A stretch of 5,191 nt of DNA from a virus (Duplodnaviria; Heunggongvirae; Uroviricota; Caudoviricetes). The translations under genes and the position numbers were made by a program. Positions 1-5,191 of the stretch are shown in pieces. The notes below the pieces were generated by a model. That model was not told the origin of the DNA and searched no databases. It was given only the letters and a program-made list of their open reading frames with translations. Every line of letters starts with the position of its first letter. Position 1 is the first letter of the stretch. The stretch covers positions 1 through 5,191 of IMG/VR virus record IMGVR_UViG_2565956611_000004; one strand, 5' to 3'.

Positions 1-46
1 AGGTTGCTCCGGGCTATGAAATAGAAAAATGAATCCGTTGAAGCCT
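1..46. other. Host chromosomal flank (attB B-arm side) adjoining the prophage attL
   Basis: The sequence left of the core (aatccgttgaagcctg) matches what I recall of the E. coli attB flank, not the lambda attP P arm. No ORF is assigned here. Confidence 0.55.
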
Positions 47-61
47 GCTTTTTTATACTAA
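47..61. other. attL: attL common core / overlap region (GCTTTTTTATACTAA) of a lambda-type site-specific recombination site
   Basis: Exact 15-bp lambda att core, with the P' arm sequence to its right and non-phage sequence to its left. Confidence 0.85.
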
Positions 62-85
62 GTTGGCATTATAAAAAAGCATTGC

Positions 86-98
86 TTATCAATTTGTT
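86..98. promoter_or_regulatory. IHF binding site (H' of the att P' arm)
   Basis: TATCAATTTGTTG fits the IHF consensus WATCAANNNNTTR and sits at the expected position between the core and the arm-type Int sites. Confidence 0.6.
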
Positions 99-106
99 GC
101 AACGAA

Positions 107-137
107 CAGGTCACTATCAGTCAAAATAAAATCATTA
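107..137. promoter_or_regulatory. Int arm-type binding sites P'1-P'3 of the P' arm
   Basis: Tandem arm-type-like repeats caggtcactat / cagtcaaaat / aaaatcatta directly abut the int stop codon (TAA at 135-137 on the minus strand). Confidence 0.6.
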
Positions 138-1205
138 TTTGATTTCAATTTTGTCCCACTCCCTGCCTCTGTCATCACGATACTGTGATGCCATGGTGTC
201 CGACTTATGCCCGAGAAGATGTTGAGCAAACTTATCGCTTATCTGCTTCTCATAGAGTCTTGCAGACAAACTGCGCAACTCGTGAAAGGTAGGCGGATCC
301 CCTTCGAAGGAAAGACCTGATGCTTTTCGTGCGCGCATAAAATACCTTGATACTGTGCCGGATGAAAGCGGTTCGCGACGAGTAGATGCAATTATGGTTT
401 CTCCGCCAAGAATCTCTTTGCATTTATCAAGTGTTTCCTTCATTGATATTCCGAGAGCATCAACATGCAATGCTGTTGGGATGGCAATTTTTACGCCTGT
501 TTTGCTTTGCTCGACATAAAGATATCCATCTACGATATCAGACCACTTCATTTCGCATAAATCACCAACTCGTTGCCCGGTAACAACAGCCAGTTCCATT
601 GCAAGTCTGAGCCAACATGGTGATGATTCTGCTGCTTGATAAATTTTCAGGTATTCGTCAGCCGTAAGTCTTGATCTCCTTACCTCTGATTTTGCTGCGC
701 GAGTGGCAGCGACAGGGTTTGTTGTTATATGGCCTTCAGCTATTGCCTCTCGGAATGCATCGCTCAGTGTTGATCTGATTAACTTGGCTGACGCCGCCTT
801 GCCCTCGTCTATGTATCCATTGAGCATTGCCGCAATTTCTTTTGTGGTGATGTCTTCAAGTGGAGCATCAGGCAGACCCCTCCTTATTGCTTTAATTTTG
901 CTCATGTAATTTATGAGTGTCTTCTGCTTGATTCCTCTGCTGGCCAGGATTTTTTCGTAGCGATCAAGCCATGAATGTAACGTAACGGAATTATCACTGT
1001 TGATTCTCGCTGTCAGAGGCTTGTGTTTGTGTCCTGAAAATAACTCAATGTTGGCCTGTATGGCTTCAGTGATTGCGATTCGCCTGTCTCTGCCTAATCC
1101 AAACTCTTTACCCGTCCTTGGGTCCCTGTAGCAGTAATATCCATTGTTTCTTATATAAAGGTTAGGGGGTAAATCCCGGCGCTCATGACTTCGCCTTCTT
1201 CCCAT
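135..1205 (-). CDS. int: Lambda-type integrase (tyrosine recombinase), 356 aa
   Basis: The translation matches lambda Int as I recall it, with the catalytic residues in place (R212, K235, H308, R311, H333, Y342). It ends next to the att P' arm. Confidence 0.97.
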   Translation of the reverse strand: MGRRRSHERRDLPPNLYIRNNGYYCYRDPRTGKEFGLGRDRRIAITEAIQANIELFSGHKHKPLTARINSDNSVTLHSWLDRYEKILASRGIKQKTLINYMSKIKAIRRGLPDAPLEDITTKEIAAMLNGYIDEGKAASAKLIRSTLSDAFREAIAEGHITTNPVAATRAAKSEVRRSRLTADEYLKIYQAAESSPCWLRLAMELAVVTGQRVGDLCEMKWSDIVDGYLYVEQSKTGVKIAIPTALHVDALGISMKETLDKCKEILGGETIIASTRREPLSSGTVSRYFMRARKASGLSFEGDPPTFHELRSLSARLYEKQISDKFAQHLLGHKSDTMASQYRDDRGREWDKIEIK

Positions 1206-1401
1206 TTCTGATCCTCTTCAAAAGGCTACCTGTTACTGGTCGATTTAAGTCAACCTTTACCGCTGATTCGTGGAACAGATACTCTCTTCCATCCTTAACC
1301 GGAGGAGGGAATATCCTGCACTCGCGTACCCATCGACGAACTGTTTCAAGGCTTCTTGGGCGTCGCTGGCGTGCGTTCCACTCCTGAAGTGTCAAGTACA
1401 T
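1183..1401 (-). CDS. xis: Lambda-type excisionase, 72 aa
   Basis: The translation MYLTLQEWNARQRRPRSLETVRRWVRECRIF... matches lambda Xis as recalled. The 3' end overlaps the int start by 23 nt, as in lambda. Confidence 0.95.
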   Translation of the reverse strand: MYLTLQEWNARQRRPRSLETVRRWVRECRIFPPPVKDGREYLFHESAVKVDLNRPVTGSLLKRIRNGKKAKS

Positions 1402-1413
1402 CGCAAAGTCTCC

Positions 1414-1427
1414 GCAATTACACGCAA
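1414..1427 (-). promoter_or_regulatory. cII-binding direct repeat TTGC-N6-TTGC of the pI promoter (-35 region), just upstream of the xis start
   Basis: The minus strand reads TTGCGTGTAATTGC 13 nt upstream of the xis ATG. In lambda the pI promoter is cII-activated and its transcript begins inside xis. Confidence 0.6.
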
Positions 1428-1450
1428 GAAAAAACCGCCATCAGGCGGCT
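1426..1450 (-). terminator. Putative intrinsic terminator-like hairpin on the leftward transcript, just upstream of the pI cII site
   Basis: The minus strand reads GCCGCC-TGAT-GGCGG followed by TTTTTTCTT (a GC stem plus T-tract). I recall the same element at this position in lambda. Confidence 0.5.
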
Positions 1451-1514
1451 TGGTGTTCTTTCAGTTCTTCAATTCGAATATTGGTTACATTGTTTTCATA
1501 TATGAATAAATAAA

Positions 1515-1694
1515 TTAGCTTTTTCCGTTGCCTTCGCGATCTTTATTAATTTTGACAAACTCGTTTTTACCACGCTCTCCAAATGCGTCTTTAGAGTCGT
1601 TGTATCCGCAATCGCAGCACACATAATCACCAGACCATCCACGCATTGTTTTTTCTTTTGCAATATTTCCAGAACCGCATTTTGGACAAGACAT
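1515..1694 (-). CDS. Small zinc-ribbon protein (about 59 aa; CPKC-x17-CCDC)
   Basis: The ORF track entry 1515..1727 begins at a TTG. An internal ATG at 1694 has a GGAGGT Shine-Dalgarno 6 nt upstream, giving MSCPKCGSGN... Two CxxC pairs are spaced as in a zinc ribbon. Confidence 0.6.
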   Translation of the reverse strand: MSCPKCGSGNIAKEKTMRGWSGDYVCCDCGYNDSKDAFGERGKNEFVKINKDREGNGKS

Positions 1695-1790
1695 ATCACT
1701 ACCTCCAAAGCATGAGTGAGATGACAACGTAACATTGATTGGAGATTAACAATAGATTGCTGATGTAAAAGATATGTATAAGCTTCGCTT

Positions 1791-2672
1791 TCAAAGTGGA
1801 GGCTCTGGTAGCGGCATCCAGTGTGACGGCTCACATACCCCCTCAACACCATTCATGTAAAAGAATTGAAATAACCCTTTACCTTTGTGAAACCCTACCA
1901 TCTGCTCTTTAGTGTCTGAGCAATAAACCAAAACATCTTCTTCGTTTGGCATTCGATCACTACAGCTTATCCAACCATCCGGAGTTACCGGAGAGTTGCC
2001 AGCTAGTCTACGCAAAACAGCCTTAACAGCCTCAATACGGTCATCATCGCAACTTTCCAGCGTATCTATGCGATCGAGCATGATGATGGCGTTATCAATA
2101 TCAGGATTGCCGGTCCACTCATTACCGCGATTGGATTCGGCAGCCTGGTTGCCAGATGCTGGCTGATTGTCGGCTTGGCTATAGCTAACAGCACGGCAGG
2201 CATCCTCTACGTTCTTCACTGCATCTGCGCAGTAGTTATAGCGATTGCATTCCACTAACTTCTGCTTGAGATTTTCAATTGCTTGCGCGACATCAGCCTG
2301 TATTGGCGGAACGGCTGTTTGCTCTCGAACGTCATTAGTCGCTATCGGTTCTGCTGCCAACTGACTGGCATATTTGTTAATGGTAACGATAAGCTCTTGC
2401 TCGGCCTCATCCAGACAATCACCGATACCTCGCCTGTCACCGTCAAAATCATCGAAATCGGCACGAATCCTGGCAACCTCCCGGATTGCGGACAACACTT
2501 CACCAGGAATAAGCGGAGAGTTGCCCGATAGTACATTCTGCTCCAGCGATGCCAGAGCAATTCGTGCCAGTTCTTCCGCTTCTTCTGCTGGCAGTACAAC
2601 GTTGCTACCAGGTCCGTATGTTTCGCGCCACTGCTTGATTGTCAGTAGTCGCTCTTTGGTTATAGTGGTCAT
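1791..2672 (-). CDS. Ea22-like early-region protein with a DUF551-like C-terminal domain, 293 aa
   Basis: The C-terminus (...WISCSDRMPNEEDVLVY...EPSHWMPLPEPPL) resembles the DUF551 signature found at the ends of Ea22-like prophage proteins. Its start overlaps the upstream stop (ATGA). Confidence 0.8.
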   Translation of the reverse strand: MTTITKERLLTIKQWRETYGPGSNVVLPAEEAEELARIALASLEQNVLSGNSPLIPGEVLSAIREVARIRADFDDFDGDRRGIGDCLDEAEQELIVTINKYASQLAAEPIATNDVREQTAVPPIQADVAQAIENLKQKLVECNRYNYCADAVKNVEDACRAVSYSQADNQPASGNQAAESNRGNEWTGNPDIDNAIIMLDRIDTLESCDDDRIEAVKAVLRRLAGNSPVTPDGWISCSDRMPNEEDVLVYCSDTKEQMVGFHKGKGLFQFFYMNGVEGVCEPSHWMPLPEPPL

Positions 2673-2878
2673 TTGTTAACCCTCAAAACTTTATGCCCGG
2701 GCGCAAAAGCACGCGTTTTGTCTTTGCTTATTCGCCAGCCATCCTTGCGCGCCTCTTTTGCACAGCCAGCCCATGACGTACCTATATACTCACCGAAGTC
2801 TGGCACTGGATATACACCTTCCGTGCACTGACGGCAGTCACAATAGAGATGCATTGTGTAACTTGCGGCAATAGCCAT
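2669..2878 (-). CDS. Small Cys/His-rich hypothetical protein, 69 aa (possible metal-binding)
   Basis: Strong Shine-Dalgarno (AAGGAGG, 5-nt spacer) before the ATG at 2878. It contains H10, C13, C15, C18 and C39, and is translationally coupled to both neighbours. Confidence 0.65.
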   Translation of the reverse strand: MAIAASYTMHLYCDCRQCTEGVYPVPDFGEYIGTSWAGCAKEARKDGWRISKDKTRAFAPGHKVLRVNK

Positions 2879-2879
2879 A

Positions 2880-3344
2880 TCACCCTCCTTTACCCTGAAG
2901 CATGGCGTCGCTCCGCTCTATACCATCCAGCGCGATTCGCAGTGCCTGAATTGTGGTAGTGCTATCGTTTGGGGCTATTCCATATCGCTCGAATACAGCT
3001 AAATGGTTGCGCATAATCTCAGGCGTAAGCTCTTTGTAAGCATAAGCAAGAGGCTCTGATGCATTATCCGGCACAACCGACGCAGGCGCGGCAGCATAAA
3101 CAGGAATAACGTCCGCTTGCTCTTTATTGCTTTCATCCGTTAAAGCCCAGAATAATTTCCCGGCCGGATGTTTGAAAATATAAGCAACTGGTTCTGCACT
3201 ATCAGCTTCGCGCCGCTTCTGTAGCTCTGCTGCCATTGCTCTCACGACTTCAACTGGTGCCCTTGCGGCAAACTCTATGTTGGTGATCAGCTCATTAAGA
3301 TATTGCTCGCTGGGATACTGTTTCTTATTGGTAATAGTGGTCAT
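2880..3344 (-). CDS. Hypothetical protein, 154 aa
   Basis: Shine-Dalgarno GAAGGA upstream; its ATG overlaps the upstream stop (ATGA at 3341-3344). No motif recognised. Confidence 0.7.
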   Translation of the reverse strand: MTTITNKKQYPSEQYLNELITNIEFAARAPVEVVRAMAAELQKRREADSAEPVAYIFKHPAGKLFWALTDESNKEQADVIPVYAAAPASVVPDNASEPLAYAYKELTPEIMRNHLAVFERYGIAPNDSTTTIQALRIALDGIERSDAMLQGKGG

Positions 3345-3856
3345 GCCGCGTTTCCTTCTTTCTTATTAACAATTACACCGTCATATATTTCATTAAGGTG
3401 CCCTCTCAACTCCATGCGCCTTAATGCAGATAACATGTAATCGCATTCAACCTGCTTATTTCCAGTAAATGGCTTATCGTCAGGATTACCCCAACAGCAA
3501 TTACCCTTGGGCCACCCATGTACTTTCCGTACTCTTCCGTTAACAACGTGAAGTAATCCCCAGCCAGGTGGTAAATCCTCAATTGAAATAATTCCCGGCT
3601 CACTAATAAAGAATCGCCAGTCGCCCATTCCAAGAGACGGATTTTTACGAAAACGCTTTTTTCTATCTGCCAACAAGTCAGCACGAGAACACTTCGCCTC
3701 TATCAGGCATGATGCTGAATTTCTGAATCCCATAGCATCTGGCTGTTCTCCGGTACTGGTTACAGCTATAAAGCGGTCATGAAAACAAACCTTGAACCCG
3801 TTGCGCTTAAGGAACTTGTACGCAATCTGACAGAGTTCGCGGTGTGTTAACGCCAT
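3341..3856 (-). CDS. Putative PD-(D/E)xK superfamily nuclease (Hjc/VRR-NUC-like arrangement), 171 aa
   Basis: Start refined to the ATG at 3856, which has an AAGGAG Shine-Dalgarno with a 6-nt spacer. The track's 195-aa form begins at an upstream GTG inside the preceding gene. Motif reading: E7 ... GEQPD40AMGF ... CLIE53AK55, i.e. E / PD / ExK with nuclease-like spacing. Confidence 0.6.
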   Translation of the reverse strand: MALTHRELCQIAYKFLKRNGFKVCFHDRFIAVTSTGEQPDAMGFRNSASCLIEAKCSRADLLADRKKRFRKNPSLGMGDWRFFISEPGIISIEDLPPGWGLLHVVNGRVRKVHGWPKGNCCWGNPDDKPFTGNKQVECDYMLSALRRMELRGHLNEIYDGVIVNKKEGNAA

Positions 3857-3857
3857 A

Positions 3858-4046
3858 TCACTCTCCTTTAGTGCGCAAGTGGTTTTTCCAGCGGTTTTGC
3901 GCCGCGCTGGGCTTTTTGCAAAAACCACAATCCATCATCCCGTAATATTTCATCAACCCCATCCGTCGGTTGCTGAGTCTCACCCACTGCCAGACGCCAG
4001 GAGCGTTTCTACGAACTAACAGAATCTTTGCTTTACGGTTTTTCAT
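3858..4046 (-). CDS. Small basic protein, 62 aa (paralog A; MKNRKAK... N-terminus)
   Basis: Its ATG overlaps the stop of the upstream paralog (ATGA), and its own stop lies 1 nt before the nuclease-like gene's ATG. Lys/Arg-rich. Confidence 0.6.
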   Translation of the reverse strand: MKNRKAKILLVRRNAPGVWQWVRLSNRRMGLMKYYGMMDCGFCKKPSAAQNRWKNHLRTKGE

Positions 4047-4047
4047 C
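4027..4047. repeat. Direct repeat copy 1 (tttgctttacggtttttcatc), covering the start of the 62-aa ORF
   Basis: 20 of 21 nt identical to 4200-4220. Confidence 0.8.
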
Positions 4048-4219
4048 TTACAGCGTACCCTTTCTTCCGCCTGTTCTGTGACGCAGTAGGCTTACGCTTT
4101 GCGGCAAAAGCCACCTGACCAAATGGATGGAGTACCGCTATCTTATGGTTGCTAATAACCAGCTCCACCACACGCACAGGTCGCTGTAAAAAAAGTCGTT
4201 TTGCCTTACGGTTTTTCAT
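4043..4219 (-). CDS. Small basic protein, 58 aa (paralog B; MKNRKAKRLFLQRPVRVVELVISNHKIAVLHPFGQVAFAAKRKPTASQNRRKKGYAVR)
   Basis: Not in the supplied ORF track; found by manual translation. AGGAGAG Shine-Dalgarno about 8 nt upstream. It shares the N-terminal MKNRKAK and the C-terminal K(K/R)KP(S/T)A(A/S)QNR motif with the 62-aa ORF. Confidence 0.5.
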   Translation of the reverse strand: MKNRKAKRLFLQRPVRVVELVISNHKIAVLHPFGQVAFAAKRKPTASQNRRKKGYAVR

Positions 4220-4220
4220 C
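4200..4220. repeat. Direct repeat copy 2 (tttgccttacggtttttcatc), covering the start of the 58-aa ORF
   Basis: 20 of 21 nt identical to 4027-4047. Confidence 0.8.
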
Positions 4221-4391
4221 GCTTTGCTCTCCTGCGTCTCTTTGCTGCTCGTCGTGCCGCTGCAATACCGGTATGGCGGCGCTTTGGTGCCGGGATGATG
4301 TTGTCAGCCATCAGGACATGTGGCTTTGCAATTAGCGCAGAAGCCCAAAAACGAGTCGGGTACGGTAACAAGCCGATACATGCCACACGCA

Positions 4392-4880
4392 CTACTCACC
4401 TCCGTTGATGCGAATGCCTGTTGCAATGCTGTTTATGATGCTGTCAGTGCATGGGGTAGAAAGCTGGGCATCTCCAGCAATTTTCATGACATCAACATCT
4501 GCATATCGAATACCGAGGTGTATCAGACCGGCTATACCTGACTTAAGCCGAGCATTTTCCATAAACAGATCCTTTGCCCGCTGTTTTTCTGCCTCAAGCT
4601 CAACGCGCAACTTCCCTACCGTTAGCGCAATATCCTCGTTCTCCTGGTCGCGGGATTTGATGTATTGCTGGTTCCTTTCCCGTTCATCCAGTAGTGCCAG
4701 CACGGTTTCTGGTCCGGCCAGAAATTTGAAGGCGTTGAGCGCATCAATATCCACACCGTAATCTTTAAGTTCCTGTTCACTTAACAAATCATCATCAGCT
4801 GGCAACATTAACAGGCGTTCCATTGCTGGAATTGCACGTTCCGCCGCCTCACGCAGTGCCTGGTAATTAATTTCGCTCAC
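4392..4880 (-). CDS. Ea22-like protein, 162 aa (lambda Ea22 homolog with a divergent central region)
   Basis: GTG start with a strong Shine-Dalgarno (AAGGAGG, 6-nt spacer). N-terminus MSEINYQALREAAE..., the block LLDERERNQQYIKSRDQENEDIALTVGKLRVELE, and the C-terminal ...GIRINGGE resemble lambda Ea22 as I recall it. Confidence 0.85.
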   Translation of the reverse strand: MSEINYQALREAAERAIPAMERLLMLPADDDLLSEQELKDYGVDIDALNAFKFLAGPETVLALLDERERNQQYIKSRDQENEDIALTVGKLRVELEAEKQRAKDLFMENARLKSGIAGLIHLGIRYADVDVMKIAGDAQLSTPCTDSIINSIATGIRINGGE

Positions 4881-5191
4881 TGGTTGCCTCCTTTGCGAAG
4901 CTGGGCAGCAAAGTCAACTAACCACTCAGTCATTTCAACCTTCCCTACCAGATCTGAACCAGGGTGCATACAGCAATCACTCTGCGCCGCTTTGAAATCC
5001 TTATACTCATATTCTTGGGCCACCAGATTTTTTGCAGCTTCTATAGCAGCATCCACGCCCTGCGCCCGCACTTCAGCCAGGAAAGCATCGGTGGCTGGGG
5101 TTTCAGTAACATCATCTTCCCATTCGCTAAACTCCTCACGACAAAAGTCATTAAATTCCTTCTCAGATTGCTTAAGCGAGGTATTTTCAGC
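4877..5191 (-). CDS. Hypothetical protein, 5'-truncated by the window edge (at least 105 codons in the window)
   Basis: The minus-strand frame is open from the window edge to the TGA at 4877-4879, which overlaps the GTG start of the Ea22-like gene (GTGA). The track's 64-aa ORF is this frame cut at an internal GTG. Confidence 0.6.
   Translation of the reverse strand, partial: AENTSLKQSEKEFNDFCREEFSEWEDDVTETPATDAFLAEVRAQGVDAAIEAAKNLVAQEYEYKDFKAAQSDCCMHPGSDLVGKVEMTEWLVDFAAQLRKGGNQ

Follow-up and report, generated by a model that had tools for sequence, protein, structure and literature searches.

A short sequence shared by gene starts as a probable recombination boundary in a mosaic early-gene family of enterobacterial temperate phages

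The stretch of DNA considered here, hereafter the window, comprises 5,191 nucleotides (nt), positions 1 to 5,191 of the IMG/VR record IMGVR_UViG_2565956611_000004 (Caudoviricetes), and forms the left arm of a lambdoid prophage whose genes all lie on the minus strand. Two of these genes, encoding proteins of 293 and 154 amino acids (aa), open with the same 17-nt sequence, ATGACCACTAT(A/T)ACCAA, of which the window holds two copies (Table 1). The copies agree at 16 of the 17 positions, as an earlier note made from the sequence alone had pointed out, and their longest perfect run is 11 nt. No further match with up to two mismatches was found on either strand of the window, and 200 dinucleotide-preserving shuffles of the window gave none. 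By our own estimate, chance would bring any pair among about 12 gene starts to agree at 13 or more of 14 free positions with a probability of about 1e-5. Both ATGs are the first start codon of their open reading frame (ORF), with GAGG or GAAGGA 5' of each. Outside the 17 bases the two loci are unalignable both upstream and downstream: the sequences 5' of the starts are unlike (GAGGGTTAACAA versus GAAGGAAACGCGGC) and contain separate Shine-Dalgarno (SD) regions, and BLASTP of the 293-aa against the 154-aa protein detected no similarity (best E = 8.9), all of which bears out the description given in the earlier note. Its statement that the genes are otherwise unrelated holds for direct alignment in the window but not beyond it, since both proteins match phrog_60 and phrog_12449 and belong to one mosaic family; as BLASTP of the pair gave nothing, this kinship is shown only via PHROG profiles and chimeric relatives. 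Both starts also overlap the stop of the preceding ORF as ATGA, the TGA of copy 1 (bases 2-4, 2669-2671) ending the 69-aa ORF and that of copy 2 (3341-3343) the 171-aa ORF, so that the 17-mer holds the upstream stop as well as the start. The same ATGA overlap occurs in 42 of 130 unique contexts.

Since the two family genes lie 672 base pairs (bp) apart in the same orientation, the window carries two direct copies of the start tract, here called the linker, with a 672-bp cassette between them. The IncY P1-like phage-plasmid pMTY1586_IncY (L420) is identical to the window over 1301 nt (100% identity). A second replicon, pM121-2 (L419), matches pMTY1586_IncY at 99.0-99.8% identity over kilobases to the left and right of the site, and what it lacks is exactly the 672 bp between the two linker copies: it keeps one copy, ATGATCACTATTACCAA, followed by AGAGCGACTACTG.., and the alignments overlap by 17 nt. 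The cassette is likewise missing from the viral contigs L040 and L031, which match the window at 3875-3328 (97-98% identity) and at 2672-2537 in alignments that overlap by exactly 17 nt; these contigs thus place a body of the 293-aa type behind the sequence that flanks the 154-aa gene upstream. The match of L040 stops at window 2537. The 672-bp unit, with its 154-aa and 69-aa genes, precedes different family genes in four further contigs (L138, L218, L221 and L227). Pieces of window 3700-2400 are present in 2,172 of 5,426 complete Escherichia coli genomes, and just 19 have 80% or more of it. In 40 rows taken at even steps down the ranking of these matches, alignment ends cluster at query 355-357 and 369-373, which correspond to copy 2, and at query 1020-1029, which corresponds to copy 1; further clusters lie at query 1164, directly after the peptide ARIALASLE, and at query 504 (AEPV), where alignments start.

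The linker can also head a gene of another family. The HNH endonuclease gene of L059 starts with the canonical upstream spacer and linker, gaggactaaccc followed by ATGACCACTATTACCAAAAAGCAG (gaggactaaccc followed by ATGACCACTATTACCAAAAAGCAGCGC; MTTITKKQRAKLRMKFGGRCAYCG), which its homologue does not carry, starting ATGGCACTGACGAAAAAACAACG in L418 and ATGGCACTGACGAAAAAACAACGT (MALTKKQRAELRMKFGGRCAYCG) in E. coli FDAARGOS_1282.

An exact-match scan of viral contigs returned at least 119 stretches with the 17-mer, and the class and match counts drawn from it are lower bounds. Among the matches listed outside the window, 117 of 121 coincide with the ATG of a family ORF in an enterobacterial prophage. 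After MTTIT(K/N) the encoded proteins continue in varied ways (ERIELFIKNPLENG.., EWLQQTIAEFEN.., EEVKAFIEQ.., ERLQWLANISG.., ERAEIKSFI.., NNKL..), the window types being ERLLTIKQWRETYGPG.. for the 293-aa and NKKQYPSEQ.. for the 154-aa protein. When flanks of 40 nt upstream and 60 nt downstream are clustered at 80% identity, the linker is found with at least 24 upstream classes and at least 13 mutually unalignable downstream classes in 40 combinations, one upstream class pairing with up to four downstream classes and the converse likewise. Between representatives that are unlike on both sides, only the positions from about -12 to +26 exceed the random identity of about 25%. Where two contexts share the upstream class and differ downstream, similarity stops at +17 to +27 (24 of 25 pairs); where they share the downstream class and differ upstream, it starts at 0 to -14 (96 of 100 pairs). 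The shared tract has a median length of 23 nt (interquartile range 20-29), the boundary elsewhere spanning about 20-30 nt, and it usually continues into AAAGA(R)CG. Directly 5' of the ATG, about half of the upstream classes have AGGAnTAAC, which provides the SD sequence and often the stop of the upstream gene. In 30 of 299 loci two or three family genes stand in tandem, without exception on one strand. The tract therefore has the marks of a boundary sequence, namely a site at a gene boundary, non-homologous flanks that reassort and breakpoints that coincide with it. The earlier note had proposed to look for the 17-mer at gene starts of related prophages with different genes attached downstream, and this is what the contigs reveal; the motif is present at homologous loci in other genomes, and its frequency lies far above that expected by chance. 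A scan of genome contigs with the 17-mer (596 gigabases, about 140 chance matches expected) gave matches of which those listed come almost all from unrelated taxa.

Two observations on other starts may be added. In L063 (8079-8516, plus strand) a family gene opens MTTITTITTIT, the 9-nt linker unit ACCACTATT standing there in three copies, suggestive of slippage inside the linker. In phage P22 (L417, BK000583) the starts of eaF and eaD, at 1724-1746 and 2080-2102, share cccaATGAGCAACATCGACAAAC (MSNIDK) and then run into unrelated sequence. Here eaD is the Ead/Ea22-type gene. The ea region thus seems to have another start linker, unlike the first.

Relatives were also collected independently of the motif, via the bodies of both proteins with their N-termini removed, and the starts of their ORFs were then compared. 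Sixty-eight of 80 unique contexts start within four mismatches of the 17-mer, five more do so once over-long ORF calls are mended, and the remaining seven have a more distant start variant (ATGACTGAATTAAC.., MTELT). Frequent variants are ATGATCACTATTACCAA (MITIT), ATGAGCACTATTACCAG (MSTIT) and ATGACCACTTTTAC.. (MTTFT). In this set, codons 2-5 differ from the consensus by 22 synonymous and 49 nonsynonymous changes (6 and 13 distinct substitutions, respectively), while the neutral expectation is 11 synonymous to 25 nonsynonymous among 36 possible single changes. The observed ratio equals the neutral one, and hence there is no sign of peptide constraint on these codons. Third codon positions 6, 9 and 15 are kept in 64-67 of 68 contexts, and the most variable site is the second position of codon 2. 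The reverse pattern is found at the (EL)ARIALASLEAEPV junction inside the same proteins, where first and second positions are 0.8-1.0 identical and most third positions only 0.3-0.6; such decay of third positions is the signature of a conserved peptide, unlike the start tract. Judged from these substitution patterns, the start tract is conserved at the nucleotide level. A conserved RNA structure around the start codon, which the earlier note had thought worth checking, found no support: folding around the two starts revealed no stable structure relative to shuffles (z = -0.05 for the 293-aa and +1.84 for the 154-aa start), and in 40 contexts compared with 192 synonymous recodings the natural codons were not less structured (mean percentile 0.54, p = 0.28). 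No antisense partner of the linker emerged from 1.78 megabases of related loci, where complementary matches stayed at chance level.

What family do these genes belong to? The 293-aa gene had been taken for an Ea22/DUF551 gene. The DUF551 domain is indeed present (residues 233-292, E = 1.8e-18), but a search of this protein for the Ead_Ea22 domain (PF13935) gave no match, and the protein is EaA-like instead, combining an EaA-type N-terminus (MTTITKER...ARIALASLE) with C-terminal DUF551. The eaA gene of P22 opens with gaggactaaccc followed by ATGACCACTATTACCAAAGAACGT and encodes MTTITKERIELFVKSPLENG..ELARIALASLDAE, its 17-mer being the T-variant ATGACCACTATTACCAA, as in copy 2. Since P22 eaA carries both the 17-mer start and the junction, the family is that of P22 EaA and not Ea22. 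Linker-headed proteins (124 distinct ones, 114-538 aa) comprise 75 with DUF551, 15 with dATP-dGTP_PPHyd and one with HNH, the rest having no Pfam domain. Both window genes share one build, with start linker, N module, (ARIALASLE/..)AEPV junction and body. DUF551 was not detected in the 154-aa protein, which has no Pfam match, and searches of the 154-aa, 69-aa and 171-aa proteins against Pfam, NCBIfam and PDB sequences returned no named family. Chimeric relatives exist: the N module of the 154-aa protein is fused to DUF551 in L187, in L093 and L418 the first 257 nt of its gene run into the middle module known from the 293-aa gene, many phages have its body behind other N modules, and many of its relatives match only from residue ~50 onward. 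We thus regard the 154-aa gene as a mosaic relative of the EaA / DUF551 family that lacks DUF551.

It is worth recording that the (EL)ARIALASLEAEPV junction, which parts N modules from bodies, is found with 16 left and 37 right classes in 74 combinations. Window 1948-4047 and a block of IncY P1-like phage-plasmids agree at 99.7% identity, and the P1 and P7 records match too; an ea-gene block common to an int/xis prophage and to IncY plasmids means that cassettes are shared by two very different kinds of temperate phage. This near-identity stops at 1948, inside the DUF551 of the 293-aa gene, at the N-terminal motif ..PVTPDGWISCS(D/E)RMP.. of the domain, which looks like a third recurrent mosaic breakpoint. 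In both plasmid records (L419 and L420) several mosaic genes with intact ORFs carry the pseudogene flag of the NCBI pipeline ("incomplete; partial in the middle of a contig"), and these flags are probably an annotation artefact of mosaicism. On the practical side, automatic annotation thus calls mosaic genes partial pseudogenes, and the label "Ea22" is loosely put on EaA-type genes.

The other genes of the window are given in Table 1. The zinc-ribbon protein is nearly identical in sequence to EaG of P22 (MSCPKCGSGNIAKEKTMRGW..), and the tandem phrog_1380 paralogues each begin ATGAAAAACCGTAA. The Ead/Ea22 homologue matches the first part of phrog_368 and the ORF at 4877-5191 (minus strand, cut by the window end) its last part, so that Ea22-type modules also lie side by side here.

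Table 1. Coordinates of the genes, linker copies and junctions in the 5,191-nt window.
Feature	Position	Strand	Remarks
int, lambda-type	135-1205	minus	prophage attachment (att) system at the window's other end
xis	1183-1401	minus	
Lar-like / P22 EaG-like zinc-ribbon gene	1515-1694	minus	weak Lar_restr_allev match
293-aa mosaic gene, P22 EaA family	1791-2672	minus	linker, N module KERLLTIKQWRETYGPG.., ARIALASLE junction, middle module, DUF551
ARIALASLE junction, residues 36-44 of the 293-aa protein	2541-2567	minus	second mosaic breakpoint, peptide-level conservation
Start-linker copy 1, ATGACCACTATAACCAA	2656-2672	minus	start codon and codons 2-6 of the 293-aa EaA-family gene
69-aa ORF (phrog_926), second cassette gene	2669-2878	minus	3' end is upstream class 6, among the commonest linker contexts
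672-bp cassette	2673-3344	minus	one linker copy, 154-aa gene and 69-aa gene; bounded by the two direct repeats
154-aa gene	2880-3344	minus	linker, N module NKKQYPSEQYLNEL.., AEPV junction, body; phrog_6847, phrog_60, phrog_12449
AEPV junction, residues 50-53 of the 154-aa protein	3186-3197	minus	counterpart of the ..LEAEPV junction in other family members
Start-linker copy 2, ATGACCACTATTACCAA	3328-3344	minus	start codon and codons 2-6 of the 154-aa gene
171-aa ORF (phrog_9263 / phrog_631)	3341-3856	minus	left flank of natural recombinants
Small tandem paralogues, 62 and 58 aa	3858-4046 and 4043-4219	minus	both phrog_1380
58-aa gene	4216-4392	minus	
Ead/Ea22 homologue, 162 aa	4392-4880	minus	Ead_Ea22 domain, E = 7.6e-33

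Taken together, one tract at nearly every joint, random flanks, their free reassortment and two replicons that differ by one unit fit recombination guided by a patch of identity. We therefore consider it probable, on the strength of these sequence comparisons, that the 17-mer is the core of a short boundary or "linker" at which homology-guided recombination reshuffles cassettes, much as the earlier note had suspected. As far as sequence comparison goes, the genes that begin with this boundary belong to a hyper-mosaic early-gene family found in enterobacterial temperate phages, with P22 EaA as its type; most members close with DUF551 and some with a dATP/dGTP pyrophosphohydrolase domain. The boundary contains the SD-proximal spacer, the start codon, the first five to seven codons and, in many cases, the stop of the gene before it; with such contents a crossover inside the tract would preserve the stop of one gene, the start of the next and the distance between them, and so leave both flanking genes intact and tightly packed. 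Candidate machinery for these putative exchanges would be phage single-strand-annealing recombinases of the Red-beta, RecT or Erf type, RecA, or slipped misalignment, and slippage between direct repeats in one genome could remove or duplicate a cassette. The uniformity of the tract would then result from repeated inheritance and copying through exchanges rather than from a need for the MTTIT peptide.

One may ask whether the tract is instead kept for expression, as an unstructured, G-poor translation-initiation element with start-stop coupling, the joints being incidental and those that break genes having been lost. The ATGA overlap at both starts and in nearly a third of the unique contexts agrees with this proposal, as does the 154-aa start, less structured than its shuffles, and conservation at the nucleotide level is compatible with a constraint on RNA. 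The 293-aa start is average in this respect, however, and natural codons are no less structured than their recodings; other tightly packed genes of the operon have quite different starts, illegitimate recombination would not be expected to put one and the same sequence at nearly all joints, and the IncY plasmid pair differs by exactly one repeat unit. We regard this explanation as unlikely. It seems highly improbable that selection acts on the protein, with MTTIT(K/N) serving for instance as a processing, stability or targeting signal in a diverged family. Most family members do encode the peptide, and an alignment of 124 proteins shows almost no variation at M1, T3 and T5, but MITIT, MSTIT, MTTFT, MTTLT, MNTLT and MTTMT are common, nonsynonymous changes outnumber synonymous ones (49 versus 22) while third positions are conserved, and the same five codons stand on an HNH endonuclease whose homologue starts MALTKKQ. 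Plain common descent, in which old paralogues would have diverged everywhere except in their first codons with no recombination at the motif, would account for the matches of both proteins to phrog_60 and phrog_12449 and for the order of parts that they share (start, N module, (LE)AEPV junction, body). It is nevertheless very hard to reconcile with an identity that falls from ~100% to random within a few bases, with upstream and downstream classes that reassort, with near-identical replicons that differ by one cassette, or with a linker grafted onto an unrelated HNH gene, and we hold it to be very unlikely.

A more active role could be imagined for a neighbouring nuclease, which would cut cassette-less genomes near the linker so that repair copies the cassette in, in a homing-like manner. 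The candidates are the HNH endonuclease whose gene precedes the linker in some phages and, less surely, the 171-aa ORF of the window. HNH genes stop inside the linker in upstream classes 22 and 31, and the 171-aa ORF contains a ..PDAMGF..CLIEAKCS.. string that resembles a PD-(D/E)XK motif, a suggestive likeness of the motif alone. Most upstream contexts are not nuclease genes, though, and the 171-aa ORF has neither a Pfam nor an NCBIfam match, its PDB match being insignificant (a lectin, E = 0.25), so that such a hot spot appears to us a very slim prospect. That the repeat arose by chance or reflects wrongly assigned start codons can practically be discarded: nothing but the shortness of the motif speaks in favour, whereas none of 200 shuffles reproduced it, it recurs in hundreds of loci, and both ATGs come first in their ORF, behind an SD sequence and overlapping the previous stop. 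A transposon with target-site duplication and an integron (attC) cassette were likewise considered and rejected, the 672-bp unit having no transposase or integrase match and no inverted repeats. The 17-mer, as read from its sequence, is not palindromic.

Several points weigh against recombination at the linker. The comparative set was largely found with the motif itself and includes many near-identical E. coli prophages, and the class counts depend on clustering thresholds that are arbitrary. Start-stop overlaps (ATGA or GTGA) also occur at 4877-4880, 4216-4219 and 4043-4046; they are general in this operon, and tight packing is thus not peculiar to the linker. The nucleotide conservation could also stem from some other sequence-specific function of RNA or DNA. 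The 672-bp difference between the plasmids fits a deletion or an insertion alike. Exchange between the two copies of the window should be rare, since their 11-nt perfect run is shorter than the 23-27 bp quoted for Red-beta and the 31-34 bp quoted for RecA as minimal efficient pairing lengths (PMC3945230). Finally, both recombination at this site and its dependence on homology are inferred from end products alone.

It is tempting to go further and hypothesize that the linker is not just a passive stretch of identity but may define a gene-cassette array based on homologous recombination. One to three cassettes of an early-expressed family of host-interaction or anti-defence type would stand head to tail, each bounded by the same nucleotide-conserved stop/SD/start unit. 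Lambdoid prophages and P1-like phage-plasmids would trade these cassettes, perhaps stimulated by neighbouring nuclease genes, the conservation being kept by selection for exchangeability. We consider this broader scheme unlikely.

Whatever its fate, the locus offers a concrete and abundant test case, with a tract of ~20-30 nt, dozens of partners, tandem copies and pairs of near-identical replicons, and these properties make the linker hypothesis directly testable. The matter should be of moderate interest for specialists of phage evolution.

How does this tract compare with systems already described? Short conserved boundary sequences at the joints of lambdoid modules were proposed in the modular theory of Susskind and Botstein (1978) and in the work of Clark et al. 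(2001) on HK620, as cited in PMC3029335, where it is also stated that such sequences are seldom identifiable. Like these lambdoid linkers, the present tract measures a few tens of bases, lies at a gene boundary, has alternative non-homologous modules on its flanks and is proposed to guide recombination. Unlike them, it lies mostly inside coding sequence (start codon plus five to seven codons) and not between genes, and it heads one gene family, possibly two to three times per genome. No earlier description of this start tract was found in the literature searched, Clark et al. (2001) being outside that search. As to the enzymes, phage Rad52-like recombinases (Red-beta, RecT, Erf) act on short and diverged homology (PMC3945230, PMC2327257). 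The median tract of 23 nt equals the lower end of the minimum quoted above for Red-beta, which makes the activity of such an enzyme plausible; the studies cited dealt with hundreds of bases of diverged homology, whereas the patch here is 17-30 nt, of which 11 are perfect between the window copies. Same-strand repeats 672 bp apart and one-copy variants without the interval also recall deletion or duplication between direct repeats by RecA-independent slippage, but slippage within one genome leaves unexplained the combinatorial pairing with many foreign modules seen here.

The closest parallel in gene content is given by the mosaic Ea22 genes of Shiga toxin (Stx) phages, for which the exo-xis region, DUF551 as a portable domain and blocks defined at the protein level are described in PMC10834534 and PMC7093339. 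The region (exo-xis / ea) is the same, and so is the build of early genes from shuffled blocks that include DUF551; the Stx-phage genes belong to the Ead_Ea22 family, unlike the EaA-like genes considered here, which lack the Ead_Ea22 domain. A term search of both papers found no mention of a conserved nucleotide start as a joint. The concept of a linker is already known, and this tract is a clear new and unusually well-documented example of it, not a new category.

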